Below are positions 6,638 through 61,917 of a stretch of 64,000 bases of DNA, piece by piece. Location of the stretch: positions 14,756,001-14,820,000 of the forward strand of contig NC_135830.1 in assembly GCF_964213995.1 (NCBI RefSeq), written 5' to 3'. Under the pieces are notes generated by a model. The model searched no databases. It saw nothing but the letters and a program-made list of their open reading frames with translations, and was not told the origin of the DNA. The first letter of the stretch is position 1. The number at the start of each line of letters is the position of its first letter. This DNA comes from Mustelus asterias (taxonomy: Eukaryota). Made by a program: the position numbers and the translations under genes.

Positions 6638-7610
<973 letters not shown>

Positions 7611-7829
7611 AGTGGATTCTGCTGTAGCTGCTGCTGTTAATCACAGCCAGGTGTGAGCCACATTCATTCTGACATTTGGGGCCTGTTTTTGCTGATGTTA
7701 ACAACCCCTGTAACTGGGCTGGAGTTTAATATTCTGGATCTTCAGCTGATTGTGGTCTTGGGTTTGCAGTGTCCATTTATGAGCCGTTGTCTGTAATCTT
7801 TCCCCATCATTCTGGAACTCTCATCACAG

Positions 7830-17455: not shown

Positions 17456-18769
17456 AGGCAGAGAGGTAGCTGCAATTGCATGAATTCTCGAGCTTTCAAC
17501 ATATCAAAAGTTGCATTTTATAATGTTAATTTGGAAATAACTTGTATTTTTAAAACGCTTTACCTGGCCCTATTTCGTTCCAAAACATTTATAACTCACT
17601 AATGTACCTCTGCTGAATTTAGTCACTGCTGTAATGTTAGAAATCCAGCAGGCAATTTGTGCACAGCAAGCTCCCATACACCGAAATATGATAAATCACC
17701 AGTGCATTTGCGATTTTAGTTGAGGAATGGACATTTGTCCAGGATACTCGGAAGAAATGTCGTACTCATAAGAATTATATCAATGTGAATTTACATCCTT
17801 TCATCGACCTGAAATGTGAATCTCTTTCTCTCTCTGCTGATGCCCACTAACATGCTGAGCAACATTTCGTGTTGTTGTTTTTGTAGATTTCCGTAATCTG
17901 CAGTACTTTGTCCTGTTTTAATTCATTCTCTGGATGCGAGCATTACTGACAAAGTCAACATTGATTGTCCATCCTAACAAGGCAGTCGTGAACTATTTTT
18001 TGTTTGAAAACCTGTCCTCTGGTCGGCTTTATTATTGCTTGATTTCTGGAGCAGCTTTGATACAAGTGGATGTCTTTTTCGGCTAAAAGTCATTTTCATC
18101 GCTGTGGAAATGGAATCAAATGTAGGACAGACGGGGTAAACTTGGGAATATTTGATTTTCAGGCTCTTCACTTCCAAAGCGAAGATTTTGTTTGACATGT
18201 GTTTGGGCGAATAAAATTAATTAAGGGGAATTTCACAGTAGGTTCATTGCAGTGTTAATGTAAGCCTGACTTGTGACTATTCAATAAATAAATATTAAAA
18301 ACTTATTAATAAATTAATTCGGAATCCCTGGGGCATATGTGTTGGAGGATGATCCAGGACTACCGTCCTGAAGAAGACACTCGAGACCCTGCCCAGGAAC
18401 ATGTCAGACTCAAGCCATCGAATTGCTGCCGATTATTTAAATCAGTCTCAGGGAGTTTCCGGGACGCCCTGTCGCTGCCTTTGGCTGAGTCAACACGACT
18501 CCGCCTGGCAACTGTGAAACTATATCAAAACCCCGAGGAATAATCCTGGTGAAATGATTACAGTCTCTGAAACATTGCAGACCAACACTGAGACAGTAAC
18601 GTGAGATCCATTGTAATCTCTCTGCTGAACCTAAATGCGAAATTGCATTTGAGCATCTGTTAGTTAAAAAAATAACATTCGAAATTAAGTCTCTTTATTT
18701 CTGCAGCACTTGACAAATGAATTGACATAAACAAGATTAAATTATCTTATCAGGGAAAATACATCAGTT

Positions 18770-19090
18770 GAAACAGTTGGAAGCTTTTTCCCAGGGCAGA
18801 AATGACAATTAACAAGGGGGCACAATATCAAGCTAAGCGGGGAAAGCTTCAGTGGAGATGTGCGGGGTAAGTTTTTTTTTCGCAGATAGTGGTGGGGGCA
18901 TGGAATGAACTGCCAAGTGATGTGGTTGAGGCAGACACTTTAGCAATATTGAATACTTATCTGGATTACACATATGAACATACGGGGAATAGAGGGATAC
19001 AGGCGGTTTGTCTGGATAGGACAACGTGATCGGCGCAGGGTTGGAGGGCCGAAAGGCCTGTTCCTATGCTGCACTGTTCTTTGTTCTTTG
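18770..19090 (+). mobile_element. CR1 3' fragment
   Basis: 3' UTR GGAGGGCCGAAAGGCCTGTTCC and (TTCTTTG)n tail. Confidence 0.85.
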
Positions 19091-19901
19091 ATTTGCAACA
19101 ATTCCGTGTCTCGAACACATTACACAAACAAAACATAATTTATTAGATAAATTCTTAAAGAAACATGTGACTAGATGTGCGGATGAACGAAAGTGATGCT
19201 ATTTGCAGTGCCGATGACTTTCGCTGTAATTTGGGATTGGATATAAGAAGAAACTCCTTTTATTATAGAATTTTTCTCCTTATATTTCTCGAACAGCCAC
19301 TTAACCCTGTGGAAATTAGTGGTGAAATAAAGCCAGTTGACTTATAATTATATAGTGAGTTGACAGAGAATCATAAAATTGAAATCGACTTTTGACAGAG
19401 ACGTTAATGAATCGGAACGGACAGGGCGATCCGTAAAGTTCTCCTTCAGCATCCAAATCATTGCAGCTCATTTTATTGGCCACTGGCTGTCTAACATTCG
19501 CTGGTATTCGGAACAAAAGATATCACGCTTTGTGGCATATTGCCCAATATCACGCGAATAAGTGTTTTGTCTTCCATTGAATCAGGTTCTGAACTTGTCA
19601 TTTCTCCACTCATTGGCAGCTATGAGAGCGATGAGAGCAGCTATGAGAGCGATGTTCAAATCACATTGCACTGTCGAACAGTACCCAGTGTTAAACAGGT
19701 ACAAGAGACGATGCCATTGAAATGATGTGCTGAACTCTGAGAATATCCCAGGAATCCCCGCTGTTCAAGGCAGTTTTATGGTTTTAATTTTATTTCTATT
19801 CCTTTTTTGCCACTACACTGATCTCATTAGGCTGGGGATTTGGGACCATCAACATTTCTCCCTCGCATTTTCATGAAGTTGTTTGCAAAAAGGCTTTAAT
19901 T

Positions 19902-20040
19902 GCTTTGACAACGGGCCATCTGGACTCGAAACATCAGCTCCTTTCTCTCCTGACAGATGTTGCCAGACCTATTGAGATTTTCCAGCATTGTCCTTTGGTT
20001 TCAGATGCCAGCATCCGCAGTAATTTGCTTTTATCCAGGC
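19902..20040 (+). mobile_element. Short pLTR-like repeat with decayed U3-A8 hammerhead motif (19902-19938)
   Basis: GCU-UUGACAA-C-GGGCC-AUCUG-GACUC-GAAA-CA-UC-AGC then CAGATGTTGCCAGACCT...TTTTCCAGCA; homologous to 45778-45909 and 40984-41080. Confidence 0.6.
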
Positions 20041-20199
20041 TTTAATTATTGGAATGACATTTACTTGGAAGTTGTACAAATAAAAAATCATCTTGCCAAT
20101 TTATATTTTCCGATAGTATTTAATCACAGAATGAACATGACATTTATTTAAAACATTTGTTTAGATGGTTGAGATGAGAATGAAACATTTATTGTTTAA

Positions 20200-20560
20200 A
20201 TGGCTGAATCTTATTTTGTCCATTCGGATTCCCGCTAATCTGTTCCACACAGTATTTGGCAGCAATCCAGCCTGCTGCCCAATGCCCAAAGTTGTTTACA
20301 GGAAGCATCTTGGGGTGTTGTTCAGTAAATCAAAGATGTTTTAACTTAGTACTTAAGCCAACTTCAAACTCTTCGGATTGTCAATGAGGACTATTTATAA
20401 ACAAACCTAGCCTGCAATGGTACTGCGGACAATTAAATTTTCCTACGTTGTAAACCTATATGAATTATTCTCATCTCTCAAGAAAGGAAGGTTATCCAGC
20501 TTCTCTGACACGATACTGGTACCAAAGGAATTCTATCCAACACATCTGAACATTGTGATG
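20200..20560 (-). pseudogene. Unidentified pseudo-exon (copy B)
   Basis: EKLDNLPFLRDENNSYRFTT*...IFDLLN...KMLPVNNFGHWAAGWIAAKYCVEQ with stops and frameshifts. Confidence 0.35.
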
Positions 20561-21814
20561 GACAGACAGAAATACATACAGGCAGACTGTGATAGTTGAC
20601 TCGGAGAGAAATTACATGTTGTATACATAAATATGTATGTTTGTGTTTTCTTTCCCTTTATTCTTCCATGGGCTGTGGAAAGTCTTGCAACACCAGCATT
20701 TGTTTCCTCTCCCTAATTCCCTTGAAATGATTGGTTTTCTAGGCCGTTTCAGAAGGCATTGACGAGGCTGCCACATTTCTGTCAGTCTGGAGAAACATCC
20801 TGGTGAGAACAGGTGGCATGGCAGATTTCCTTAATTGGTGAATCAGAGAGGTGTCCATGATCACCATTCTTCTGTATTCCAAATGTATTAATTGAATTCA
20901 AATTAAACCAGCTGCCATGGTCAGATTTAACTCGTGTCCCCATAGCATCAGCCTGGGCGTCTTGCATTAATATTACACCATCATCTTTCCTAAAATCAAC
21001 AAATGGTTGTGTTGATGCAGGAATGAATGATATTTGGATGCCTGGTTATTTTGTTTGAGGAACCAGTGAATGGAATGATGGATGTAACGATCGATGATTT
21101 TTGAATTTTGCTGTTCTCGACGCTCATATTTGTGCTTGACTACTTCAGAAATTGATGCAGATTTTGTATTTCATTTGTGTCAGTCGATAAGCTTCAGTCC
21201 TTCCAGCTTTTCTGGGTTAATTTCACCCCCGGGCTAACGGGAACAAACGAGATGAACCTGTTTGAGAGGAGTCTGGAGATATTCCTGCGGCACTCATGTT
21301 TTTGTATTTCCTCTGCTGATTGTCTTCATATCTTCATAAACAAGATAGAAAGAGGGAACATAATTAGGTTGAGGTGGGAGGATTGTAATATTTGGAACAT
21401 GTGGCCCTTTCATATGCAACAAATCACTCAGCTTATCGTCAATCATATTGGGGAAGTAACAGGCTAAAAACTTAATAATATGGAACAGGAACATAGCGAA
21501 AGTTACTGGACAGATGCAATTTTTCAATTGCGTTCCAAAACAATGTAACAAAAAATCGGGATTTTAAGATTCCAAAACTCCACATAGTTTCAGTTATACA
21601 GTCGCTTGAAAAAACGGATCGCACGCCCCAGTTATATATCGTGAGTTTCTGTGTGATGATGAGGTGATCACTTGTCAATGAAGTGCAGAGGCTGCTGGGT
21701 AGCTGGTCATTATCCTCGGTCTGAATTACTTTATTTTCCCATTGAATTCTGGAACAGATTTGATTCACAGAAAGGCCAATGTGGTCTCAATAAGTTTGAA
21801 TCTCAATTAATTAT

Positions 21815-26305: not shown

Positions 26306-29300
26306 TCGATTTTTTTATGAGGCCATGCCCCTATTTAAGTTCATAGTTATGACTGCACCGAACCATGTATCAGGTCATATGGCAAGAGGCCGTGTCTGAA
26401 TTCTTGATGCATTGGAACATTTATGAAGTGCAGTAAACTGTAACAACATCCTTCTTGTATGACATGTGGTTTGGTTACAGTCAGTGTTCTAATAGGTCAT
26501 GAGATGCTAATAAACTTGATCCTGCTTTAGTCAATTCTGCGACAGTCTATGTATTTGGCCATTCAGTCTGTGCACCGTCTCTGTTATTTTTGTATTATGT
26601 GATCCACCTAACTCTTGCATTGTCCATGTCTCAGTGTGTACAAGAGCGTATATGGAATGAGCTGCCAGAGGAAATGGTAAAGTCGGGTACAGTTACAAAC
26701 ATTTTTTAAAATTGGACAGGTACATGGATAAGAAAGGTTTAGAGGGATGTGGACCAAATGCCGACAAATGGGACGTGTTGAGTTTAGGAAACCTAATCGG
26801 CATGGAGGAGTTGCGCTGAAAGTTCGGCTTCCGTGCTGTATATCTCTATGAATTTAAGACTCGAGGGATAACCTGCTTTGTACTCTTCCTTCAGAGATTC
26901 CCAACGCAGGTTGACATTGGTTTTAGGTACAGTGTAAATCTTCCTCTGCGCTGTCCAGTCAAACAAACCCAGATCATTTACAGCACAGTTTAGATCCGGA
27001 GGCAATCGCCCTCTACACAGTAAATAGCAAACCCTCGCAGGACAGCTTAGAGTCAGCTATACTTCCTATGTTCTGTTCATTCAAACATAGAAATGGCTGG
27101 CACAGCCCGGGTCAGATACAGGAAATGATCAACACACATTTTAAAGCATAGCTTCCTCTACGGATTCAATTGATTGAACAGAATTCATTTACTTAGAAGC
27201 GCATGAATAAGGTTAAGGTGATACATTGGCTAAAAGTTAACTTCATATTCTGGGGTGAAGACAATGACGCAGTGTGAAGAGACAATGCACAAAACCAGAC
27301 AGGAGGAAGACACAGAGAAACAGATAAAACACAGGAAACCTCGACAAACATATTTGTCGTGTAATTATACTTCGAAATTAGCGGGAATTTTTCCTAATTC
27401 TGAACGTAGATATGATCATAGCTTATTTTTCACATATAACTGGCGAAGAAAAAATGTCTCAAAAAATAAAAACTACAGGAATACGTTGATTGATTTGTTT
27501 GTTTACCTCTATTTCTGTGCTGTGCAAATGGCGAAATATTTGTTTTTTTTTTCAGTCAACAATCTAATCTGGGATTTCTATTTCTTTATTTATTTACATA
27601 AACACCTCACTGGTTACAGTGAAATGTTCATGGTAGCAAAACCAGATAAACCGCCACCTATTGATTAGCTTCAACTCACAATAGCGATTTATTTTAAGAA
27701 TATTCACAGGTGGTTCAAAATGATTAGAAGCTTCTTGAACACCAATTAGACCAGATGCTATTTAATTAAAAATAAAAGATACATTCAATTTAAGAATCAG
27801 TTCAAAAAGTCCTGATAATAAATGAAGCATCTGTGAACAGGCTTGTGGGTTCCATTGAAAGTCAATTTGATTGGCGATTTAATCTACTTGAACTACACAA
27901 GTTAAAGCATCAGCCAGAGGAGTGACCTTGATTCACATTAATTTCAGAGGTTTCAACATATCAAAAATTAACACTTAAAATGTTGACATGTGAAAAGAAC
28001 TTCCATTTTAAAAATGCTTTACCCGACCTCATTTCGCCCTAAAGCATTTAAAACTCACTGATATACTTTTGCTGAATGTAGTCACAGTCGTGATGTTGGA
28101 AATACAGCAGGTAATTTGTGCACAACAAGCTCCCACACACCTTGATGAGATAAATGTCCAAAGAAATTGTGATTTTTGTTGAAGAATGCATTTTGGCCGA
28201 GGATATTTTCATTCTGAGATTCATTTTAACAACTTCCATGCAGCTTATAATTGATAGAACAGACTGTTTGATTTACCAAATAAAGCAATGCAATTTACAT
28301 AAAATTTAAAGTGGCAATAAAAATTGATTGTAAGGGATTTCTTCTATTAATTGTTCACAAGGTTTCCACTTGGCCATTTTATATGCCAAATAAAGTTAAT
28401 TCTCAGCCGATGAAATCCCTTCCTCTATCTGCCCTCAGTTGATTTTGTCTTCTGGTTTTTGAGCATCATGCTCCGATTTCATCAAGTAAAACCGTTCATT
28501 GACGGTCTGACAGTGTACTTTCTACAGGCTCTATCCTGAGGGACGGATTGCAGGAGAGCAAGAATTCTGGAGTTCAAAATTCTACACGTCTCTTTCGGAT
28601 TCTGGGCCACTGCAAGATCCAACAACCCAGTCATTTTCTTCAGTATTCCCCTCGGTGCGTAGTGTTCTGCTCTTTAGAATTACATCAATGAGATTTTGCA
28701 TTCTATCATCGACCTGAAATGTGAATCTGTTTCTCTTTCAGCTGATTCCCACTGACCTGCTCAGTATCCATTTTGTTGTTTTTGTTTTATATTCCAGGAA
28801 TCTGCAGTATTTTGCTCTGTTTTATTTATTCTCGGGATGTCAGCATCACTGAAAAATTCACCATTAATTGCCCACCCTGAGAAGGTGGCTGTGAACCACC
28901 TATTGAAAACCTGCCCTGTCATCGGTTTTATTCTTGTCTGAATTTCTGCAGCAGTTTTGAAAGAATAGAATGGTTTCTTCGGTAGTTAAGAGACAACGAC
29001 GTCATGTGGAACTGGAGTCATATGTAGGACAGGCAGGGTGAATAGGGATATAGGAACATGGAAAGAAAGGAGCAGGACTAGGCCACTCCACCCTTCGAGC
29101 CTCCTCCGTCATTCAACATGATCATGGTTGGTCATTTATCTCTAAGGCCACATTGCTGCTTTCTGTTCACGCACATTGTTATCATTAAAATCTAAACAAA
29201 AATCTAGATCTTTCTTGAATATATTCATTGACTTGGAAGGATGCTGATGCATTTGAAAGTGTGCAGAAAAGAGTTACTAGGATGCTGCCTGGTTTGGAGG

Positions 29301-31362: not shown

Positions 31363-34300
31363 TTGTATGGAGGATGGTGAATGCTTGGAACTGTCTGCAG
31401 GAGGAGGCGGTGGAATCAGAATCGAGAACAAAAGTTGAAGAGGTACCTACAGAGATACATGAATAAACAGGGAATAGAGGGATATAGACCACCGAGAGGC
31501 AAGAAAATATTAGATTCGGAAGACATTTGAGTCGGCTCAAACTTAGTGGGGTGAAGGGCCTGTTCCTGTCCGTATTGTGCTTTGTTCTTTTGCATCCACA
31601 CCATACTGCTCTGGAGCATTCCACAAGTTCGCTACCCTCTCATATGAAGAAACATTTCTCACAATAAACATCTCACACTTAAAATTTTGTATTACAGAAT
31701 AACACATTGTGGGAAAAAAAACATTACTTTAATTTTCCGATTTTCTCCCACTCATAATCGTCAGTCCATCTCTCGTTCAATTATCATTTCTTTTGCACAT
31801 TGAAATGGGAATGGAAGTGAATGTCATGCTGAGACCGGCAGCATTATGTGCGGTTGTTCTGGATGCTGTCAGAGTGAGTTCACTCTCACAGGCAAGAAGT
31901 CTGTTCACGGCGATAACATTAAACTGACCCCGGTTCTTTCATTCCGAGGTGACACATCTTCCTGTTCCTCTGTTGCAAACCGTATATCGCACTTCTGAAC
32001 AAAAAATAAATCCATGGACCACAATCTGGTGAGAACATCTGTCAAGGCGGCCTACATCTGTCTGCAGTCACGGCAGTGTCACATAGGTCACATTGGGGTA
32101 ACATTTACAAATTAGCCTGTTGTGATCTGTTTAGAGCTTCCATTCCAGGACATAACTGCAAGGTCAGTGGATCAGTCACTGAGCTCCCTTCGTTCTCTGA
32201 GGCGAGAAATGAGATCTTGCTAACTTGCACATTTTTCTATCATTTCTCTCTCTCTGTTACATTCTCTTTTATGATTCTCAGCTTTTAACTGTCAGCACCC
32301 TGTCTCTATTTCTCGTTTTAATTCTCCTATCTCTCCTGGTATCTCTCTTCATCTCCCTGTCAGTCTATGTAATTAAAGTTTTCAAAATCATTAAGGTGTG
32401 AGTGGCAGGAGTGTCGCTAACCAGTGTGCACAGATTATTAGACAGATGACGTTCGAAGAATAATTGTTTCCTTTTACACAACGAGTTGACATGAACTGGA
32501 ATGAACAGCCTGAAAGGGTGATGGAATCAGATTTGACAGTAACTTTGTAAATTGAATTAGATAAACACTTGATGATGTTTAAATTTGACGTCTTGTCGAG
32601 AATAGGATGATCTGGATGGTTCGTTTATATCATTGTCCAAGCATCATTTCTGTACCAAACGTCAAAAGAGTGATAAAGTCCCAGGAAGGCGTCCATCGTT
32701 GGAAGGAGAAATGTCAAGAGTTCCTCTCTTCTTCAGCTCGCTCACCCATTCTGAGTCGAAGAAAATAACAGATAAAACAAACAGAAAGAAATTGAATATA
32801 AAGTATCATCGCGAACATTGGCGTTTGTTATGTGGTCAATACTCTGAACTCAGACTTGAACCCAAAACATTCCGAGGGGTCTGTGTGTCTGCAGTTAGTC
32901 AGTGTCGATCTGGTCTGTTCCCAGTTCCTCTTGCACAATTACAAATGTAACCTGCCACACACGCTGAAAATCTGAAAACTAAATGTAACGTGCTGAGAAA
33001 GACTCAACACGTCACACAGCAGAAGGAAAATGCGTTTGTTTTTCACATATTCATATCCTTTGCACCCTTACACTATGGGCTTTGGAGAGTGATTCATCAT
33101 CAGCATTTAGTTTGAAACGTTAACTATTTCTCTCCTCAGATCCTGTCTGAGACGCAGAGCATTTCCAGAAGTTTGTGTTGTATCTGTCCTGACAGTAGAC
33201 CCTGTCAGTATGATTGCACTAACCCTATCCCGACCATATTGCAATGGCAATTGACTCTGTTATTAAGAATCAAACAAAGCATTTGTTAGCATATCAATAG
33301 GCGCTGTCTCTCACTCACGATTATTTCAAACAGAACTTTGACTGGGTGCAGCAGAAACTGACTGAGTCATCATCAGAATCGACCCAGTTATGTGTTCAGT
33401 AAAATACTGCAGATTGCTTCTGTTAAAATTACACCAAGCACTGCATTTCTTAAACTGAATTAAGTATTGATTTGCTAATTGTATTGCGTGTTATATATTA
33501 AGATTGATTGTAATCGTTGCAATAATAGCGCCCGTCAGCCACATTCTAATGCTTTAATTCTCCATGGTTATTCTTGGAAACCATTACTCATTCAGTTCAG
33601 AATTAAGAAAGACTTTCTCTAATATTGTTACATTTGACACCTCCCAGTTAATATTGTACAAAGTGATCACACAACTAACTGTTTATTCTAATGTTATTTC
33701 AGGTCCTGTCCCTCTCATTGCTATCTGGCCCATATTTTGATTCATATTACTCTCACAGCCGGTTTATGTTTTCTTTGTATCATCAGCGCATCAGCCTAGA
33801 TTTGGCCAGATTCTGTTCCTGTCATGGTTGCTGTATGTTTAACCATTGGTGGGATGGTGTGCTTAGGTCCCTAATTGCCCTTGAGAAAGTGTTGATAAGC
33901 TGCCTTCTTGAACAGGTGTAGTGCATGTTCATCAACCAATATCCCTATTTAATACATAATGCCTGGTCTCTGCTTATGATACACATGTCTCTGACTCATA
34001 TTACATTAGATTTTCTAGCTCATACAACTTGCAGAAAGTCCAGTCAAAAAAACTTAGGGCGATTACCATGGAATTGGTGAAGATAACGGCTAAAACCTAT
34101 AGAAAGAGAAATATTGAACATTCTTTGAAGAACAGCAGATTCAATCCTTTACATTACTTGGATTATGAAGTCTGAGACTTAAAGGTGTGTTCATCTCCTG
34201 TCAGGTATAGGGACAGGTTAATGTTTGCCATAATTTGCACAAATCAACACACCTTCGAGGTTTATATCAGGGACTTGTGTGAGATGCAGAGATGATCATT

Positions 34301-36200: not shown

Positions 36201-36818
36201 AGTTATCACCAATTTACACTTGTATATTGCTCAGATCTACCTTGCAGCCACATTCATTTTACTGCTGCATTGTTTTGATTCAATGTTTATTTCTCTATTC
36301 TTTGATTGAAGTGTTTTTAGGCATACATTTCTTCCCATCTGTTCTCTCTTTTGTTCGCTCCCTCAACATCAACTTCATTACTCCCTTTGTCAGCCGGAGA
36401 TATCCCCTACCGCCCCGCCCCCTTTTCTATCGTCCCTTTCCCTGGTTAAATCTCGCCGTCCATGAGGTGGTGTCGGGCAGCTCTGAAGCCTTTTTAAGTC
36501 TGAGCAACCTTTACTTGGTGAAGCTGATCTTCCCAGCCAAGCCTGAATTGAAGCAAATAACAATTGGAAACGAAACATAAACTCTTTAACTGTTAGCTAC
36601 TCTCTCTCACTTTCGCCGATCAACCTTTCAGTCTGATGGGATTCTGCTGTGTGTTGTCTCAGCCGATCCTGGATTCAGTTGGGTGACAGTTTGATTCGAG
36701 GTTAATGAGGTTTCCTCTGGGTGTCTGTTGGAGCGCCGCTGCTCAATCTGGCTGTAACCTTCTGCGATTCTCTGCACAAACCTCAACAGATTGGAGCACC
36801 CAATGATAGCTGGAAAGC

Positions 36819-36857
36819 AGTTTTTGTACGGGGGTGAGACTGCTTTCTATCACTGTG
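36819..36857 (-). other. 23-bp-spacer recombination signal sequence of intact TCR V
   Basis: CACAGTG (36857-36851) + 23 nt + ACAAAAACT (36827-36819) directly after YYCAFR. Confidence 0.95.
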
Positions 36858-37164
36858 AGACGGAAAGCGCAGTAATAGCGGCCAGCGTCAGTCAGCTGTA
36901 GGCTCGAGATGGTTAAAGTGGTTAATTTAGCCGAGGTCTGGAGATCAGCAGAGAAATTGGGTCCAAAACCTTCCCCTCTGTCTTCTTCTGTATCCCAGGA
37001 CCTTTTCTGTATAATGAACTGCAAATCCTTTTGTGGCTGCTGTCTGTACCAAGATAAGACATAGCTGCTTGTTGTAGTGCTGTAGGTACATCGGATAGTC
37101 ACCGTTTCACCTTCTCTCCTCTCTAAAGACTGCGGCTGAGAAACAGAATCTCCTTCACTCGGAT
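36858..37164 (-). CDS. T-cell receptor alpha/delta-type V segment, V exon (intact)
   Basis: TTACAG acceptor; DPSEGDSVSQ...EGETVTIRC...WYRQ...LTISSLQLTDAGRYYCAFR with both Cys and the Trp, no stops; followed by 23-RSS. Confidence 0.93.
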
Positions 37165-37379
37165 CTGTAACATGGATTCAAGAAGAAAAAAAAACTATGT
37201 GTTGGATGTGCTGCTGAAATAATATTAACACTCTACAGTCCAGTCTACATAACTGGAGTTATGAATTAAAAACAAATAAAGGTGGAATTACTCAGCAGCG
37301 TCAGGAAGCATTATTGGAGAGAAGCAGTGTTAAAGTTTCAGATCGAGATAACATTTAACCAGATTGGAGTCATCCTTAC

Positions 37380-40925: not shown

Positions 40926-42412
40926 ATGTGCTCCTCATTTTGGTTACTGATAATAATGGTTTTGCTGCCCGGTGAGTCAATATGCTCTGACAAAGCGTCA
41001 TCCTGACTCGAAACCTTATCTCTGCTCTCCCTCTCACACATGTTGTCAGATCTGCTGAAAATTTGCAGCATTTTCTTTTTCTAGCCAATGTTTAAATGAT
41101 CATTATCTGTTCCATGGGTATCTTCGCTCCCAGATATTGAAGAACTTCTGTGTTTTGTTACAGGGGCAAATGCTGAAGATTCAGTGTTTCGAGATCGATC
41201 TGAATTAAGAATTCTGGAAGGACAGGACATAACCTTGGACATTTTTATGAATGACTTGGATGAGGGCATGGAAGGATGGATTAGTAAATTTGCGGATGAC
41301 ACTAAAGTCGGTGGAGTTGTAGACAGTGCGGAGGGAAGTGGCAGGTTACAGAGGGACATGGATAAGCTGCAGAGCTGGGCTGAGAGGTGGCAAATGGAGT
41401 TTAATGCGGAAAGGTGTGAGGTGATTCACTTTGGAAGGAGTAACAGGAATACAGAGTACTGGGCTAAAGGTAAGATATTTGGTAGTGTGGATGAACAGAG
41501 GGATCTGGGTGTCCATGTGCATGCATCCCTGAAAGTTGGCACCCAGGTTGATAGGGTTGTTAAGAAGGCGTACGGTGTGTGAGCTTTTATTGGTAGAGGG
41601 ATTGAGTTTCGGAGCCAGGAGGTCATGCTGCAACTGTACAAAACCCTGGTGCGGCCGCATTTGGAGTATTGCGTACAGTTCTGGTCGCCGCATTATAGGT
41701 AAGATGTGGAAGTGTTGGAAAGGGTGCAGAGGAGATTTACCAGTATGTTGCCTGGTATGGTGGGAAAATCGTATGAGGAAAGGCTGAGGGGCTTGAGGTT
41801 GTTTTCGTTAGGGAGAAGAAGGTTAAGAGGTGACTTAATAGAGACATACAAGATGATCAGAGGATTAGATAGGGTGGATAGTGAGAGCCTTTTTCCTCGG
41901 ATGGTGCTGGCTAGCACGAGGGGACATAGCTTTAAATTGAGGGGTGAGAGATATAGGACAGATGTTAGAGGTAGGTTCTTTACTCAGAGAGTAGTAAGGG
42001 CGTGGAATGCCCTGCCTGCAGCAGTGGTGGACTCGTCATCGTTGAGAGCGTTCAAGTGGTTATTGGATAAACATATGGATGATATTGGAACAGTGTAGAT
42101 TAGAGGGGCTTTAGATTGGTACCACTGGTCGGCGCAACATCGAGGGCCGAAGGGCCTGCACTGCGCTGTAATGTTCTATGTTCTATGGAAATACTCAACA
42201 AGTGGTTTTCGAATCCTGTTCTGGTATATCCAATATCCAGGGGAAGCTCCGGAATACCTGATGAAGATATATAGCTCGGGCAATACCGATAAGTCTCCGG
42301 ATTTCCTAGATAGGTTCTCGGCTGCTTTACACAAAGGAAAGAGCACTTTTCCTTGACATGTCGCCAGCACTCCTCTGTCTGACACCGCCGTGTATTTCCG
42401 TGCCATGGAGCA
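40926..42412 (+). pseudogene. TCR alpha/delta-type V pseudogene split by CR1
   Basis: Leader 40926-40971 MCSSFWLLIIMVLLP+G/GTGAGT; V exon 41164-41240 GANAEDSVFRDRSELRILEGQDITLD, resuming ~42186 KYSTSGFRILFWYIQYPGEAPEYLM...RFSAAL...FP*HVASTPLSDTAVYFRAME; one stop and second Cys changed to Arg. Confidence 0.92.
41241..42187 (+). mobile_element. CR1 3' fragment inserted in V exon
   Basis: ORFs 41184..41582 (after ITLD) and 41706..42098; (TTCTATG)n tail. Confidence 0.95.
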
Positions 42413-44775: not shown

Positions 44776-45870
44776 CACGGTAATATCAATGGTCGCAGTA
44801 ACTTAATAATGAACCAACAGAACCATAGGCTTCCTCTGGAAATTGATCTATTTTAAAATCTATTTGATTCAAGAAAACTGGGCAAACTTCCTTTCACAGC
44901 ACCTTCCGATCCCGAAATCTCTAATATCTGGAAGGACAGGGGCAGCAGAGACATGAGGACATCATCGCCTGCATGTTCACCTCCAGGTCACACGCCATCC
45001 TGACTTGGAAATATATCGCAATTCCTTTAGATTCGCTGAGTGTGTAAACCCTGCAATTCACTTTTTACGAATACTGCCTTTACGATTTTGTGCAGCGGGC
45101 AGAAAACTTGAAATGCGAGGAAGCAAAAGTGCAAGAAAATGAGAAATAAAGATTTCAAAATGCAAAATAAAACAAGGTACGAATAAGATATAAAGAGACT
45201 TTCAAATAAAGGGAAATGCATTTCCTCTCAACTGACTCGCATTTCCGTTGCGTCTGTTTGCAGTGCTGAATTGTTTGGAACACATCTCTCAAAAGAAGAC
45301 CACTGAAAATGCCCCATTGATGAACTTGCACTTTATTGTTGATGGGGACAGTATACAGTTCCCTGACTCATCGTCCGAGGGCGCTGTCGTCACATGTTTC
45401 TCGCTGATCCCAACCGGGAATTACTGAACCAAACCTTGTGGAGCCATTCCCAGTGGCAGCTGCACCCGGAGCCTCATTCCACTGCTCAGCCTCTGATCCG
45501 CCTAACCTGCCCCGTATTATTTGAGAGGTTGCCACCGATGTCCACTATTCAGTACTGGTTATATCAGCAATGTGTTGGGCCGGGAATCTGTATTCCCGCT
45601 CCCGCAGAGGATTCCCGAATCTGAGGAGTCACAGACTGACAGAAAAGAAAGCGGAACCACATTTCACCGCTTTCCATCATGATCATTATGCCAGCATCCT
45701 TTCCTAGTTATAAATATCTGTTGTCCTCCTGACTGCTGTAACTTACTGTTGCGAACTAATGATGACTTGTTTGTTAAAAGCAAATTTCTGCGGATGCCTG
45801 AATCTGAAACCAAAAGGGAAAACGCTGGAAAATCTCAGCAGGTCCGGCAGTATCTGTAAGGAGAGCAAAG

Positions 45871-45909
45871 AGCTGACGTTTCGAATCCACATGACCCATT
45901 GTCAAAGCT
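45871..45909 (-). ncRNA. Minimal type I hammerhead ribozyme motif, U3-A8 variant
   Basis: AGCU-UUGACAA-U-GGGUC-AUGUG-GAUUC-GAAA-CG-UC-AGCU; stems I and II pair, ACGU palindrome, GUC triplet; lies in repeat 45778-45966 with a partial inverted duplication. Confidence 0.6.
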
Positions 45910-46169
45910 GTATAGTCATATCTTTTCTCTCCTTACAGATGCTGCCAGACCTGCAGAGATTTTCCATGACTTATTCGTTATTCTTCATTTGGACCTTGGT
46001 GGCAAGACCAGTATTTGATCTCTATCCCTAATTGAAGTTGATCTGAGTGGCATGCTGGATAATTGTGGCAGGAAACTAAGAAGCAACGTGCTTTCTGTGG
46101 ATCTGGAATAACTTGTGCATCACGGACCTGATGTGACAGTTTATATTTATAGGATGACTATCAAGGTTG

Positions 46170-49995: not shown

Positions 49996-50219
49996 CAGTT
50001 TAAATTCAGGGCTTTCACTGACTGGGTTCAATTCAATTCCCTGTCCCGCTGTTGTCCTCATTGTTGTAACAGACACTCAATTACCCGTTTCAAAAGAGTC
50101 ATGCTGAAATCGGAACTTTCAGTCCGTGTCTTGCTTCACATTTGCTGTAGGACCTGCTGAGAATTTCCAGCACTTTCTGATTTTATTATAGCATGAATTA
50201 TTAGCTTTATCATACACAA

Positions 50220-52206: not shown

Positions 52207-52734
52207 AGGTGTTTGCATGCACCTCAACCTCACCAATGTATACACATTTTGCACTTTATTTTCATATCAGTACATTTTTCATACACGAGACAGATAAAAT
52301 GCCATGTTTAGTCGGAACGAGTAACTCATTCAGCCAATGACAACACAGATTGCTGTTAGCTGGAAAGTGAAATCGACAGTGAGGTGAAATAATTCCACGT
52401 AACTGCTCATGCGTATCTTTCAATTTCCAAAATTCGCCAATCTCATCCCCGTGGCTCCTGTGAAATATCCGAGGCAACAGAAAACAGACACACCAAGGAA
52501 CTTACGCATATTTAGCTTAAACTCCTTACTTTCCATTTCAGAATTTTGCAGTTGTAAAAATGCCATCCAGGTGAATGTTCGAATTTGTGCTTATTACACT
52601 GATCATTGCCGACTCGGTGTGTGTTTTACGTTATTACAAAACCAGTATTTATATTAAAAACTGTAGATGGTGGAAATTCTCAGCAGGTTTGGCAGCACCT
52701 GTGGTCATATTACTGTGCTATTTCTCTGTGTACC

Positions 52735-56472: not shown

Positions 56473-59292
56473 CTAAACCAATTTCTTTTCGTCCATGAAC
56501 CTATCTACGGATCTCTTAAACGCCCCCAAACTAGGCGCATTTACTACTGATGCTGGCAGGGCATTCCAATCCCTCACCACCCTCTGGGTAAAGAACCTAC
56601 CCCTGACATCGGTTCTATAACTACCCCCCCTCAATTTAAAGCCATGCCCCCTCGTGCTGGATTTCTCCATCAGAGGAAAAAGGCTATCACTATCCACCCT
56701 ATCTAAACCTCTAATCATCTTATATGTTTCAATAAGATCCCCTCTTAGCCGCCGCCTTTCCAGCGAAAACAATCCCAAATCCCTCAGCCTCTCCTCATAG
56801 GATCTCCCCTCCATACCAGGCAACATCCTGGTAAACCTCCTCTGCACCCTCTCCAAAGCCTCCACATCCTTCCTGTAATGTGGGGACCAGAACTGCACAC
56901 AGTACTCCAAGTGCGGCCGCACCAGAGTTGTGTACAGTTGCAACATAACGCTACGACTCCTAAATTCAATCCCCCTACCAATAAACGCCAAGACACCATA
57001 TGCCTTCTTAACAACCTTATCTACTTGATTCCCAACTTTCAGGGATCTATGCACACATACACCTAGATCCCTCTGCTCCTCCACACTATTCAAAGTCCTC
57101 CCGTTAGCCCTATACTCAACACATCTGTTATTCCTACCAAAGTGAATTACCTCACACTTCTCCGCATTAAACTCCATCCGCCACCTCTCGGCCCAACTTT
57201 GCAACCTGTCTAAGTCTTCCTGCAAACTACGACACCCTTCCTCACTGTCTACCACACCACCGACTTTGGTGTCATCAGCAAATTTGCTAATCCACCCAAC
57301 TATACCCTCATCCAGATCATTAATAAATATTACAAACAGCAGTGGCCCCAAAACAGATCCCTGAGGTACACCACTTGTAACCGCACTCCATGATGAATAT
57401 TTACTATCAACCACCACCCTCTGTTTCCTATCCGCTAGCCAATTCCTGATCCAATTTCCTAGATCACCCCCAATCCCATACATCTGCATTTTCTGCAGAA
57501 GCCTACCATGGTGAACCTTATCAAACGCCTTACTAAAATCCATATATACCACGTCCACTGCCTTGCCCCCATCCACCTCCTTGGTCACTTTCTCAAAAAA
57601 CTCAATAAGGTTAGTAAGGCACGACCTACCTGCCACAAAACCATGCTGACTATCACCTATCAATTCATTACTCTCCAAATAACTATAAATCCTATCCCTT
57701 ATAATTTTTTCCAACATCTTGCCGACAACAGAAGTGAGACTCACCGGTCTATAATTCCCGGGGAAGTCTCTGTTCCCCTTCTTAAACAATGGGACAACAT
57801 TCGCTAACCTCCAATCTTCTGGTACTATACCAGAGGCCAACGACGACCTGAAGATCAGAGCCAGAGGCTCTGCAATCACTTCTCTTGCCTCCCAGAGAAT
57901 CCTTGGATAAATCCCATCCGGACCAGGGGATTTATCTATTTTCAGACCCTCCAGAATATCCTGCACATCCTCCTTATCAACTGTAATACTGTCTATTCTA
58001 CTCCCTTGCAACCCAGTGTCCTCCTCAGCTATATTCATGTCCCCTTGCGTGAACACCGAAGAGAAATATTGGTTCAATGCTTCACCAATCTCCTCCGGTT
58101 CCACACATAACTTCCCTCTGCCATCTATAACTGGCCCTAAACTTGCCCTAACCAACCTTCTGTTCTTGACATACCTATAGAACGCCTTAGGATTCTCTTT
58201 AACCCTATCCGCCAAAGTCTTCTCATGTCCCCTTTTAGCCCTTCTAAGCTCGCTCTTCAACTCCCTCTTAGCCAATCTAAAGCTTTCTAGTGCACTACCC
58301 GAGTGCTCACGTCTCATCCGAACATAAGCCTCCTTTTTCTTTTTAACCAACAAAGAAACTTTTTTGGTGCACCACGGTTCCCCAGCCCTACCAATTCCTC
58401 CCTGCCTGACAGGGACATACCTATCACAGACTCGCAGTAGCTGCTCCTTGAAAAAACTCCACATGTCGGACGTTCCCAGTCCCTGTAATCTCCTAGTCCA
58501 ACCTATGTTTCCTAATTCTCTCCTAATAGCCTCATAATTACCCTTCCCCCAGCTAAAACCACTGGCCCGAGGTTCATGCCTATCCCTTTCCATCACTAAG
58601 GTGAACGTAACCGAATTGTGGTCACTATCACCAAAATGCACACCAACTTCCAAGTCCAGCACCTGGTCTGGCTCATTTCCCAGCACCAGATCCAATATAG
58701 CCTCACCTCTAGTTGGCCTGTCCACATACTGAGTCAAAAAACCTTCCTGCACGCTTTGAACAAAAACTGACCCCTCTAACGAGCTAGAGCTATAACAATT
58801 CCAGTCAATATTAGTCAAGTTAAAATCCCCCATAACAATTGCCCTATTACTTTCACTCCTAAGCAGGATTGACTCCGCAATCCTTTCCTCAACCTCTCTA
58901 GAACTTTTAGGAGGTCTATAAAAGACTCCCAACAGGGTGACCTCTCCTCTCCTATTTCTAATCTCCGCCCATACTACCTCAACAGATAAGTCCTCATCAA
59001 ACCTCCTCTCTGACACTGTGATACAATCTCTGACCAATAATGCTACCCCTCCCCCTCTTCTACCTCCTTCCCTACTTCGACTAAAACATTTGAACCCCGG
59101 GACCTGCAGCATCCATTCCTGCCCCTGCTCTATCCATGTCTCTGAAATAGCCACAACATCGAAGTCCCAGGTACTGATCCACGCTGCAAGTTCACCCACT
59201 TTATTGCGAATACTCCTGGCATTGAAGTATACACATTTCAAACCCTGCTCCACCCCACCTCTGCAATGCCGTGCATTGCAGTCCCCATCCAT
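56473..59292 (-). CDS. CR1 ORF2: APE endonuclease + reverse transcriptase, 939 aa, uninterrupted
   Basis: YFNARS, ISETW, MGDFN, GDSDH (EN); PGPDG, YRPVSL, QHGF, DFSKAFD, GVPQGS, KFADD (RT). Confidence 0.97.
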   Translation of the reverse strand: MDGDCNARHCRGGVEQGLKCVYFNARSIRNKVGELAAWISTWDFDVVAISETWIEQGQEWMLQVPGFKCFSRSREGGRRGGGVALLVRDCITVSERRFDEDLSVEVVWAEIRNRRGEVTLLGVFYRPPKSSREVEERIAESILLRSESNRAIVMGDFNLTNIDWNCYSSSSLEGSVFVQSVQEGFLTQYVDRPTRGEAILDLVLGNEPDQVLDLEVGVHFGDSDHNSVTFTLVMERDRHEPRASGFSWGKGNYEAIRRELGNIGWTRRLQGLGTSDMWSFFKEQLLRVCDRYVPVRQGGIGRAGEPWCTKKVSLLVKKKKEAYVRMRREHSGSALESFRLAKRELKSELRRAKRGHEKTLADRVKENPKAFYRYVKNRRLVRASLGPVIDGRGKLCVEPEEIGEALNQYFSSVFTQGDMNIAEEDTGLQGSRIDSITVDKEDVQDILEGLKIDKSPGPDGIYPRILWEAREVIAEPLALIFRSSLASGIVPEDWRLANVVPLFKKGNRDFPGNYRPVSLTSVVGKMLEKIIRDRIYSYLESNELIGDSQHGFVAGRSCLTNLIEFFEKVTKEVDGGKAVDVVYMDFSKAFDKVHHGRLLQKMQMYGIGGDLGNWIRNWLADRKQRVVVDSKYSSWSAVTSGVPQGSVLGPLLFVIFINDLDEGIVGWISKFADDTKVGGVVDSEEGCRSLQEDLDRLQSWAERWRMEFNAEKCEVIHFGRNNRCVEYRANGRTLNSVEEQRDLGVCVHRSLKVGNQVDKVVKKAYGVLAFIGRGIEFRSRSVMLQLYTTLVRPHLEYCVQFWSPHYRKDVEALERVQRRFTRMLPGMEGRSYEERLRDLGLFSLERRRLRGDLIETYKMIRGLDRVDSDSLFPLMEKSSTRGHGFKLRGGSYRTDVRGRFFTQRVVRDWNALPASVVNAPSLGAFKRSVDRFMDEKKLV

Positions 59293-59344
59293 GCATCCCT
59301 CACTTTCAGCCCCACTACTCAGGATCCCTCCCCCCCCCCCCGAA

Positions 59345-59785
59345 TCAGTTTAAACCTCCCTGCATGGCCTTAGCAAATTTACCCCCCAGGATATTGGTCC
59401 CCTTCTGATTAAGGTGTAGACCATCCTTCTCATAGAGGTCACACCTTCCCCAGTACGAGCCCCAATTGCTTAAGTACCTGAACCCCTCCCTCCTGCACCA
59501 TCCCCTCAGCCATGAATTCAAACCTTCCCTCTCCCTATTCCTCTCTAAACTATCCCGTGGTACAGGCAAGAGTCCAGAGATAACCACTCTGTCAGTCTTG
59601 GCCTTTAGTTTCCACCCCAACTCCATAAATCCCTGCCTAATATCCCCTTCCCCTATCCTCCCTATGTCGTGTGTCCCCACATGTACAATAACTTGTGGTT
59701 TATCTCCCTCCCCCCTAAGAGTCCTGAATACCCTGTCAGACACATCCCGGACCCCAGCCCCTGGTAGGCAACACACCAACCCTGG
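59345..59785 (-). CDS. CR1 ORF1 C-terminal SGNH esterase-like domain (partial)
   Basis: VCCLPGA, HVGTHD, DGLHLN motifs in ORF 59345..59812. Confidence 0.85.
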   Translation of the reverse strand, partial: PGLVCCLPGAGVRDVSDRVFRTLRGEGDKPQVIVHVGTHDIGRIGEGDIRQGFMELGWKLKAKTDRVVISGLLPVPRDSLERNREREGLNSWLRGWCRREGFRYLSNWGSYWGRCDLYEKDGLHLNQKGTNILGGKFAKAMQGGLN

Positions 59786-60325
59786 TTCCAGCATACGACA
59801 AACAAGTCGCAAAGCCTAGCAACCCTCCCTTCACCGCTCCCTCCCCAACACCAGCCTTCATTAATCTCGTATCCACTTCTTCAATTCACCATCACTCGAT
59901 TCAAAAATGAATATTTCCCGATCGGGGGTGTGGGTGGGCGGTAGCGGGGGGGGCAGGGTGTGCAATGTGAGAGATGGGGTGGTGGGGCTGATACTGTGAG
60001 GCTGGTAGCGGTGGGGCTCGCAGATATTTTCGGTTTGGGATAAGTGTTGATGTAAAATGCTTATGTCAGTAACCTCCCTCCGAATTTGACAGGCGGGTAT
60101 TCTATTCTGGAACTCAATGTGTGCAGCCCACGCTAAATCGCTGGTATTAACTGATTCAAATCCAGACTTCTTTGGAACTGAAGTCGTTTCCTTTTGAATT
60201 TCTAGAATTGCTGTTCATGGCTTTATCAGGATGAATAAAGCAAAATCGACCTCAATGTGTTTCTGATTGAGATGGGTTTCTGCACAGAACATTAGATTAA
60301 CACGTTGTGATGATAAAATATCTGA

Positions 60326-61227
60326 TCACTGTTTAATGAATTTCAAAATTCCAGTAACTGGAAACTTCACCACATTTTTCAGATCCTCTCTGAACTGTGT
60401 CTGTGTCACTGCATCGATGCATGTGTTGGTGCAACAACTAAGGAGTTGGAGCATAAATCCCAGTTCCTGAACAAAACGTGGTAAATGCAACCGCAATATA
60501 TTCAACATGTATAATCGGTCATAAAAGCAATAGAACAGGAACACTGACCATAATAGGATAAAATTTCCCGAAATTGCAAATAGTATGATGATAGATTTTC
60601 TTCTTTTCGCTATCTCTGGGTCACTTGGACTTTCCCCATTCTTGTGGGTCCGAAGTCTCCTGCGGACCTTGCTCAACACTACAATGTATTTAACGGTTAA
60701 AACGTTGAGCAGCACAACCAACAAAAAAGGAACAGTCGGGGTTAAAATATAGTGGAGACTTTCAGCTGCTGCCCATGCTGGTGAGGAGTCGACATCAAAA
60801 TCGACAGAACAGAAATAGGGAGTATTGGAAAGCCAATATCTATTCTCGCACATAAAGTACCAGAAAATATTCTTTACAGTGAACAGCACACTCACTGTTC
60901 CTAGAACCACAATTGCCGTTTCCTCAGTGCAGTATTTTATTTTCAGCTTCTGACAGGTAATGGCCACGAATCGATCAAAGGTAAAAGTGACAGTGAACCA
61001 AACAGAACAGTCAGTGACTGCGTAAAGCAGGACGGCGTGTATATTGCACACTTCAATGTGATACATGAAGATAAATTGATCCGTGAATCTGATCGGAATT
61101 TGCCTCAATACGAGGTCGAAGATGACGACGAGTAGATCCGCCACTGACATGGAAATTAAGTAACGTGACACACATTTGGAAAGTCCACACCTTCCTCGAG
61201 ACAGGATAAGAATCGTCAATAAGTTCA
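60326..61227 (-). CDS. Class A orphan GPCR, GPR139/GPR142-like (chondrichthyan expanded type), exon 2
   Basis: CCCTACAG acceptor; VNLLTILILSRGRCGLS, MSVADLLV, SVWFTVTFTFDRFVAI, CCTNTCI(D)AVTQ; hydrophobic TM segments; no stops. Confidence 0.9.
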
Positions 61228-61917
61228 CTGTAGGGAAGAGAGAGACAATTAACTCATATTTCAGACAGAACAGGAGCAGTGGTCTGGCAGGTTTCTGGGG
61301 GACAGCTGCAGCATTTTCTACAGAATCCAGAATAACATGGATTCACCTGTTCTGCTGCGATTGGGTTCACAGTTGGAAAGCACCGCACTGAGGTATCAAA
61401 AAACCAAATTTACCAACAGATCACATTTCCAATTTGCTGCCTTCTCCTTATTTGTATTTGGGAGACACAATGATGCCAATGGGTTTGGACGAAAGGTTCC
61501 TGATCTGGGTCATTCTGCTGTGACTGTGCTGCAGACTGTGCATCTGTAGGTATTGCATGAGTTGATTTGGATTTGGCTGTGAGTCACAAAACTGGAAATT
61601 ATATATTTTTTTACTGAGGCAGGACCCTGTAGATACGAAGGCGGGAATAGTGAAAGTGGCCGGTGGATGTGGGGAGGGAGTGGGGGGAGAGGGGGATGGG
61701 AGGGGCAAGGGGGGGGGGGGTCGGATGTGGTAGCGGGGAGGACGGAGAGTGGGAAATAGAGAGCAACCACCATGAGAGAGTAGGGAGAATGGCTGCGGGG
61801 AAGAGAGAGATATCTTCCCACTGTACTAGCATATATGGAACATGATGTTTGCACATAATAATATTACTAACTGAGTTTTATGGACAAGGGCAGTAAACAG
61901 AGTGAAATTTGACTCAC

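Follow-up and report, generated by a model that had tools for sequence, protein, structure and literature searches.

The element at 45871-45909 of the 64-kb window (the whole stretch of DNA analysed here) is a genuine minimal hammerhead ribozyme motif and not a chance resemblance. Very probably, it is the hammerhead of a Neptune-type Penelope-like element (PLE) subfamily in which a U3-A8 pair has replaced C3-G8, and the window copy is a 5′-truncated fold-back stub, likely inert, of a family whose mechanism we infer below. Reading the minus strand from 45909 to 45871, stem I (AGCU) is followed by the core UUGACAA (U3 at 45905 and A8 at 45900), one extra base, stem II (GGGUC/GAUUC, 5 bp with G10.1-C11.1 as closing pair), GAAA, ACGU, the GUC triplet and again AGCU of stem I. 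All the parts of a minimal type I hammerhead that the initial annotation had read on this strand are present, including the UUGACAA core with its U3 and A8. Core boxes 3-9 and 12-15.1, U16.1 and H17 are in place together with a Watson-Crick 3-8 pair (U-A), and helix I has the 4 bp, and the junction between positions 9 and 10.1 the extra base, of the min-hammerheads (min-HHR). The palindrome ACGU at 15.2-16.2, a potential intermolecular helix III, occurs in this copy (copy 1) and in the majority sequence and is broken in the two other ribozyme-bearing copies of the window (copies 2 and 3, Table 1). Two changes in stem II/loop 2 are private to copy 1, whose extra base is U instead of A.

The specificity of the motif was also apparent at the genome scale, where a 33-base pattern with positions 3 and 8 left open gave 2,326 exact matches vs none for the reversed control, and copies 1 and 2 align to each other with a blastn E-value of 1e-37. 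As had been expected, the family would be missed by CUGANGA pattern searches, and Rfam misses it too, since a scan of the 64-kb window found no hammerhead at E-values up to 5. Note that, in the fold predicted to have the lowest energy for the 39-mer, G5-A6-C7 are paired with the GUC triplet, and that the hammerhead-compatible fold lies 3.4 kcal/mol higher.

Host element and the two subfamilies

The repeat belongs to an EN+ PLE that is assigned to the Neptune type by its architecture. In the 3.68-Gb genome, longer copies run upstream of the ribozyme through a pyrimidine-rich UTR, the end of a GIY-YIG endonuclease, a C-x4-C-x2-C linker and a reverse transcriptase (RT) with YIDD. Pfam recognised GIY-YIG (E 2.2e-4, narrowly missing the curated cut-off) and, weakly, RVT_1 (E 0.056, also below its cut-off) in these copies; as an example, locus L094 has a 408-aa open stretch from the YID motif to GIY-YIG. 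The linker lies between RT and EN in L021, L086, L090, L094 and L100, in agreement with the expected CX2-5CxxC. The same ribozyme is found in a direct 5′ pLTR ahead of the ORF (L254, L255 and L256), some 170 bases from the predicted start of the latter, and also in the 3′ pLTR (L082-L119), about 400 bases past the endonuclease stop, within an element unit of about 3.3 kb (summed from separate loci). In addition, pLTR tandems, inverted 5′ copies (of 670 bases at one locus) and a 30-40-base tail were observed (L117 among the loci), which are Neptune-type features, and this architecture is the one reported for Neptune clade EN+ PLEs in the accessible part of PMC8557442. The 3′ ends are bimodal and about 33 bases apart (16-24 nt in 46 and 50-53 nt in 44 of 100 anchors), which corresponds to the Penelope tail. 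Thus, the initial annotation was right in taking the repeat for a pLTR, since it is a Penelope pLTR end, but its short, non-coding, stand-alone host repeat does not stand, as RT and GIY-YIG are present in the longer copies. The long copies examined all lack an intact full-length ORF, and a PDB sequence search with the RT-EN stretch gave 0 hits. The family is numerous, with 12,754 exact genome matches to a 30-base anchor (fold-back arms being counted twice), and it is present in all three public runs from which contigs were aligned to the window copy.

Several features of individual loci are reported here as observations only. L254:3100-3235, downstream of the ribozyme and upstream of the predicted start of the ORF, contains three splice-acceptor-like stretches (pyrimidine tract plus CAG) and a 22-codon upstream ORF, so that the element may have a retained intron, as other PLEs do, and the element ORF of the same locus is interrupted by a 1.9-kb minisatellite (L254:5285-7145). 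At L217, L218 and L156, the internal 30-base anchor is joined on its 5′ side to an unrelated repeat, with an identical junction in two loci 2 kb apart.

U3-A8 is the norm of the subfamily. Among the 2,326 matches, at most 2,183 are U-A (this number is the remainder of the tally, in which A-G and G-G were not separated out) and 14 are C-G, while 55 combine U3 with a base other than A8 (32 U-G, 12 U-C and 11 U-U) and 74 have neither U3 nor G8 (48 C-A, 21 G-A, 4 A-A and 1 C-C). U-A was also present in 67 of the 75 anchors that were chosen outside the ribozyme and extend to positions 3 and 8 (25 of the 100 anchors fall short of them), and in 30 of 30 loci chosen by their endonuclease end, query locus included. 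In the 33-base pattern matches, C3 is linked to G8 with an odds ratio of 19.9 because most C-G copies fall in a sister subfamily, which is recognised by diagnostic changes in loop 2, a GUU triplet and a U-G first pair of stem I. This C3-G8 sister has 928 pattern matches, and a hand count of the first 100 of them listed gave 61 C-G, 24 C-A, 5 C-C, 4 G-G, 3 U-G and 3 U-A. Among the C3 copies of the same 100, the CpG at positions 7-8 has decayed symmetrically (23 TG and 22 CA), and C3-A8 is therefore a product of ordinary methyl-CpG decay.

The median divergence is 4.8% for the sister (18 of 20 copies, two rows above 25% being dropped) vs 1.6% for the U3-A8 subfamily (30 of 30, one sister copy among them), both samples being pattern-selected. 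These divergences, rather than a rooted tree, suggest that U3-A8 is derived from C3-G8. As read from the sequences, the 3-8 covariation is real but amounts to one event between master lineages, in which both changes are easy transitions. The compensatory C3U+G8A change put forward in the initial annotation is thus upheld as a linked pair at the subfamily level, with a single evolutionary event behind it, and the majority sequence retains both paired stems. We propose that U3-A8 would have arisen once, likely in a master element with a C3-G8 ancestor, where G8A would have come first, at a CpG hot spot, followed by the compensating C3U and then by amplification of the U3-A8 master. Separately, the loose-end consensus of 12 contigs from run X5 has the sequence of a U3-A8 hammerhead whose loop 2 differs, which hints at another U3-A8 subfamily in a different organism.

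Cut site, proposed transcript start and proposed mechanism

Among the genome matches of the U3-A8 subfamily, copies that start at the cut site are not in excess (62 at +36, vs 41 at +33 and 77 at +40). Of these 62 matches, 30 were inspected and consisted of 12 fold-backs at the AGCT palindrome, 5 other inverted-arm junctions and 13 small changes within continuous copies, with none (0/30) joined to an unrelated flank. This missing footprint fits a template of uncleaved RNA and equally a dead ribozyme. It is thus conceivable, although on balance rather unlikely, that U3-A8 is a dead or nearly dead relic, whose master lost cleavage by two easy transitions and kept transposing since cleavage was not needed. 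Besides the absence of a cut-site footprint in the subfamily, such a loss would agree with a predicted ground state in which core and GUC triplet are base-paired and which, even for a near-typical copy, is 2.3 kcal/mol more stable than the hammerhead fold, with the unimpaired in vitro insertion of ribozyme mutants reported for an anole PLE (PMC11167929, in the part available) and with the spread of Naiad PLEs without hammerheads (PMC8557442, likewise). However, in the majority sequence the rest of the core is kept together with G10.1-C11.1, the two stems and the palindrome of helix III, singly changed cores occur at background rates only (32 and 48 of 2,326), and U3-A8 is independently found in other natural hammerheads that are reported as active in vitro in the available text of PMC3088659.

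The 5′ ends were examined in a breakpoint sample of 100 anchors located within the initial 10 Mb of a single contig, in which both fold-back arms are counted and a few sister copies are included. Exactly at +1 were 29 of these ends, and 51 fell at +1 to +4, whereas none was found at +33 to +47 among the 100 anchors. Upstream, TATAAA occurs at -30 in 7 of 30 U3-A8-pattern loci and at -30/-31 in 3 of 20 sister loci, despite the different spacer of the latter, most of the other loci in both sets being truncated at +1. Together, the breakpoints and the TATA match suggest the first base of the ribozyme as the transcript start. An alternative that we regard as unlikely is that the +1 pile-up is a structural artefact and not a transcription start, the AGCT palindrome drawing the junctions or the RT falling off past the hairpin. 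Indeed, fold-back junctions account for 33 of the 51 breakpoints, many of these lying exactly at AGCT, and the base at +1 junctions, which was read as a possible cap trace, shows no extra G (3 G, 3 C and 2 A in 8 cases). In contrast, 18 of the 51 lack an inverted arm, no pile-up occurs at the second AGCT (+36), and the -30/-31 spacing of TATAAA is kept across subfamilies with different spacers. Loci with TATAAA at -30/-31 that represent two or more subfamilies include L254:3030-3060, L131, L137, L138, L066, L068 and L078. Since the Penelope of D. virilis has a TATA-less internal promoter (PMC2377424, in the part available), the upstream TATA suggested here would differ from the type element. 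In the mostly open-access literature searched, no TATA-defined start at a PLE hammerhead was reported.

In the mechanism that we favour, with a start of transcription on the ribozyme, RNA polymerase II would initiate 30 bases past the TATA box, at the base that opens stem I. The element RT, primed at the endonuclease cut, would start internally, about 100-135 bases into the RNA (at two tail positions), and would run off the RNA 5′ end, leaving stubs of about 135 bases and fold-backs, on a template that would be mostly uncleaved RNA. An internal RT start, a tail, an uncleaved template and protein-assisted cleavage have been described for the anole PLE (PMC11167929, available part), and low activity as dimers for published min-hammerheads (PMC4209133, available part). 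By analogy with these cases, the ribozyme would likely cut slowly, as a dimer or with the help of the element protein, and cleavage would detach the 35 bases at the capped end, upstream of an ORF with a predicted start about 170 bases in. A bolder proposal, which we consider doubtful, is that, with a TATA-driven start on the first base of the hammerhead, U3-A8 tuned down a self-decapping switch, so that more template stayed uncut and the younger subfamily outgrew its C3-G8 sister. If this were true, the two subfamilies would constitute a natural paired experiment on the purpose of PLE hammerheads.

The initial annotation had also proposed a retrozyme-like element. In such a reading, the unit of about 135 bases would be separate and non-autonomous and would spread through its own (circular) RNA. 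The majority of copies are indeed short with common ends, and a PLE origin has been argued for animal retrozymes (bioRxiv 10.64898/2026.07.22.740005, available part), but the short unit has no upstream TATA, in longer copies it is continuous on both sides with RT and GIY-YIG endonuclease sequence, its ends are +1 and the tail and not cut site to cut site, and the copies are singles or fold-backs (52/100). This candidate, already largely refuted, was rejected as very improbable, all the more so as no non-coding head-to-tail arrays were present in the loci examined.

Comparison with known hammerheads

The U3-A8 variant is already in print (PMC3088659, PMC4209133), as are the class of motif and the anatomy of the insertions; the papers discussed in this section are cited for the parts of them that were available. 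Natural hammerheads with U3-A8 cores were presented by Perreault et al. 2011 (PMC3088659), with in vitro activity cited from 2007 work. Their variants have the same covariation and are not described as PLE minimal motifs in the part available, and the shark motif differs in being a helix-III-less motif in which activity of the pair is putative. Cervera and De la Pena 2014 (PMC4209133) defined the min-hammerhead and gave about 1,300 U3-A8 hits in S. mansoni. The hammerheads of the Schistosoma mansoni Cercyon PLEs share with the shark motif the type I fold, a 4-bp helix I, the extra base between 9 and 10.1, G10.1-C11.1, a palindromic 15.2-16.2 without loop 3, the U3-A8 core and the location in the pLTR, and both families consist mostly of single truncated copies. 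Unlike Cercyon, the present family has a vertebrate host and belongs to a Neptune-type element. In the supplementary alignment of the same paper, the chordate rows, none of which is a cartilaginous fish, are all C3-G8. In contrast to the cases of that paper, U3-A8 here dominates a homogeneous, high-copy subfamily that coexists with a C3-G8 sister in the same genome.

A second comparison is provided by PAc, a Poseidon element of Anolis carolinensis (Frangieh et al. 2024, PMC11167929), which likewise has a hammerhead near the 5′ end of its transcript and two classes of 3′ ends. In PAc, uncleaved RNA is the main template and no ends occur at the cut site; the shark element resembles it in both respects, its template being deduced from the insertions. 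The two elements differ in that PAc has C3-G8 and an ORF that starts inside the ribozyme, whereas the shark ORF is predicted to start about 170 bases downstream, with a TATA at -30. The available parts of PMC6765202, PMC6155905 and PMC3884650 contain nothing contrary, and no report of a U3-A8 PLE motif in sharks was found in the mostly open-access literature searched. What is added here is a vertebrate case, in which the variant core prevails in a family that exceeds ten thousand copies by a good margin and that standard pattern and Rfam searches miss. At the family level, three points are of interest, namely that U3-A8 dominates alongside a C3-G8 sister, that the RNA apparently starts on the ribozyme and that a footprint at the cut site is missing. 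Since a transcript would start on the ribozyme and two near-identical cores occur in one genome, the role of PLE hammerheads becomes directly testable.

Insertions and other features of the window

The window copy spans 45965 to 45775 and comprises a 51-base inverted arm, 5 filler bases and 135 bases from the first base of stem I, the whole forming a fold-back hairpin with the ribozyme in its loop (Table 1). The inverted arm does not figure in the initial annotation. Copies 1 and 2 are flanked by target-site duplications and are thus whole, short insertions; for copy 2 the duplication is a perfect 11 bases (19891-19901 and 20037-20047). The window copy itself is an ordinary family member and likely an inert, 5′-truncated fold-back stub.

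Table 1. Positions of the hammerhead insertions and of other features in the 64-kb window
Feature	Position	Strand	Remarks
Minimal type I hammerhead, U3-A8 core	45871..45909	-	+1 to +39 of the element; cut predicted between 45875 and 45874
pLTR sequence 3′ of the ribozyme	45809..45870	-	pyrimidine tract, short upstream-ORF-like stretch; pairs with the inverted arm
Penelope tail, about 33 bases	45775..45808 (boundary approximate)	-	in roughly half of copies; bimodal 3′ ends
Filler, 5 bases	45910..45914		between inverted arm and +1 start of direct copy
Inverted partial copy	45915..45965	+	element +33 to about +84; fold-back hairpin, z -10.4
Target-site duplication, 5′ copy	45966..45979	-	12/14 identical to 3′ copy
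Target-site duplication, 3′ copy	45762..45775	-	14 bases, 2 mismatches vs 5′ copy
Second U3-A8 stub (copy 2)	19902..20036	+	starts at +2, full tail; ribozyme part 19902-19939
Third, older stub (copy 3), core CUGACAA (C3-A8)	40984..41079	+	ribozyme part 40984-41020, more decayed
Older related pLTR remnant	50092..50183	+	no recognisable intact core
Weaker pLTR remnant	52657-52704	-	
Weaker pLTR remnant	33111-33174	+	
Weaker pLTR remnant	28711-28817	+	
Immunoglobulin V-set exon	36746-37177	-	Pfam E 1.8e-15
Single-exon rhodopsin-family GPCR ORF	60329-61342	-	338 aa
LINE, open endonuclease-RT frame	56476-59815	-	958 aa; upstream GDSL esterase-like ORF; presumably CR1-like
C2H2 zinc-finger fragment	7202-7624	+	

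Inserted copies decay neutrally: core positions have changed in 35 of 816 cases (4.3%) and other non-CpG positions in 160 of 3,224 (5.0%, P 0.47), with CpG positions at 18.6%. The selection on the ribozyme claimed initially cannot be demonstrated in inserted copies and rests on one change between master lineages. As an intact core is found in 38 of the 62 motif-covering copies, the intact core of the window copy needs no selection. This frequency also weighs against a co-option of the window copy to cleave a host transcript, for which its intact core and an Ig V-domain exon about 8.6 kb downstream on the same strand could be invoked; with a hammerhead fold that costs 6.5 kcal/mol once the inverted arm is included, a private change weakening stem II and no partner ribozyme nearby on the same strand, such a role is extremely improbable.

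The second copy was announced with the same two changes, and U3 and A8 are indeed present on the plus strand; it also carries a C-A mismatch in stem II and a CpG-type change that breaks the ACGU palindrome. The CUGACAA core claimed for the third copy was found as described, on the plus strand. This copy scores 98.7 bits against the C3-G8 sister and 85.1 against the U3-A8 subfamily, and is probably, by its sequence, a CpG-decayed sister copy. Its interpretation as an evolutionary intermediate was rejected, because C3-A8 is the expected CpG decay product of the C3-G8 sister. Finally, the region around copy 2 (window about 18400-21500; L001-L009) is segmentally duplicated on several contigs, and the nine loci that share this copy and its flanks are 94-100% alike over 1.5 kb, so that they are not independent insertions.
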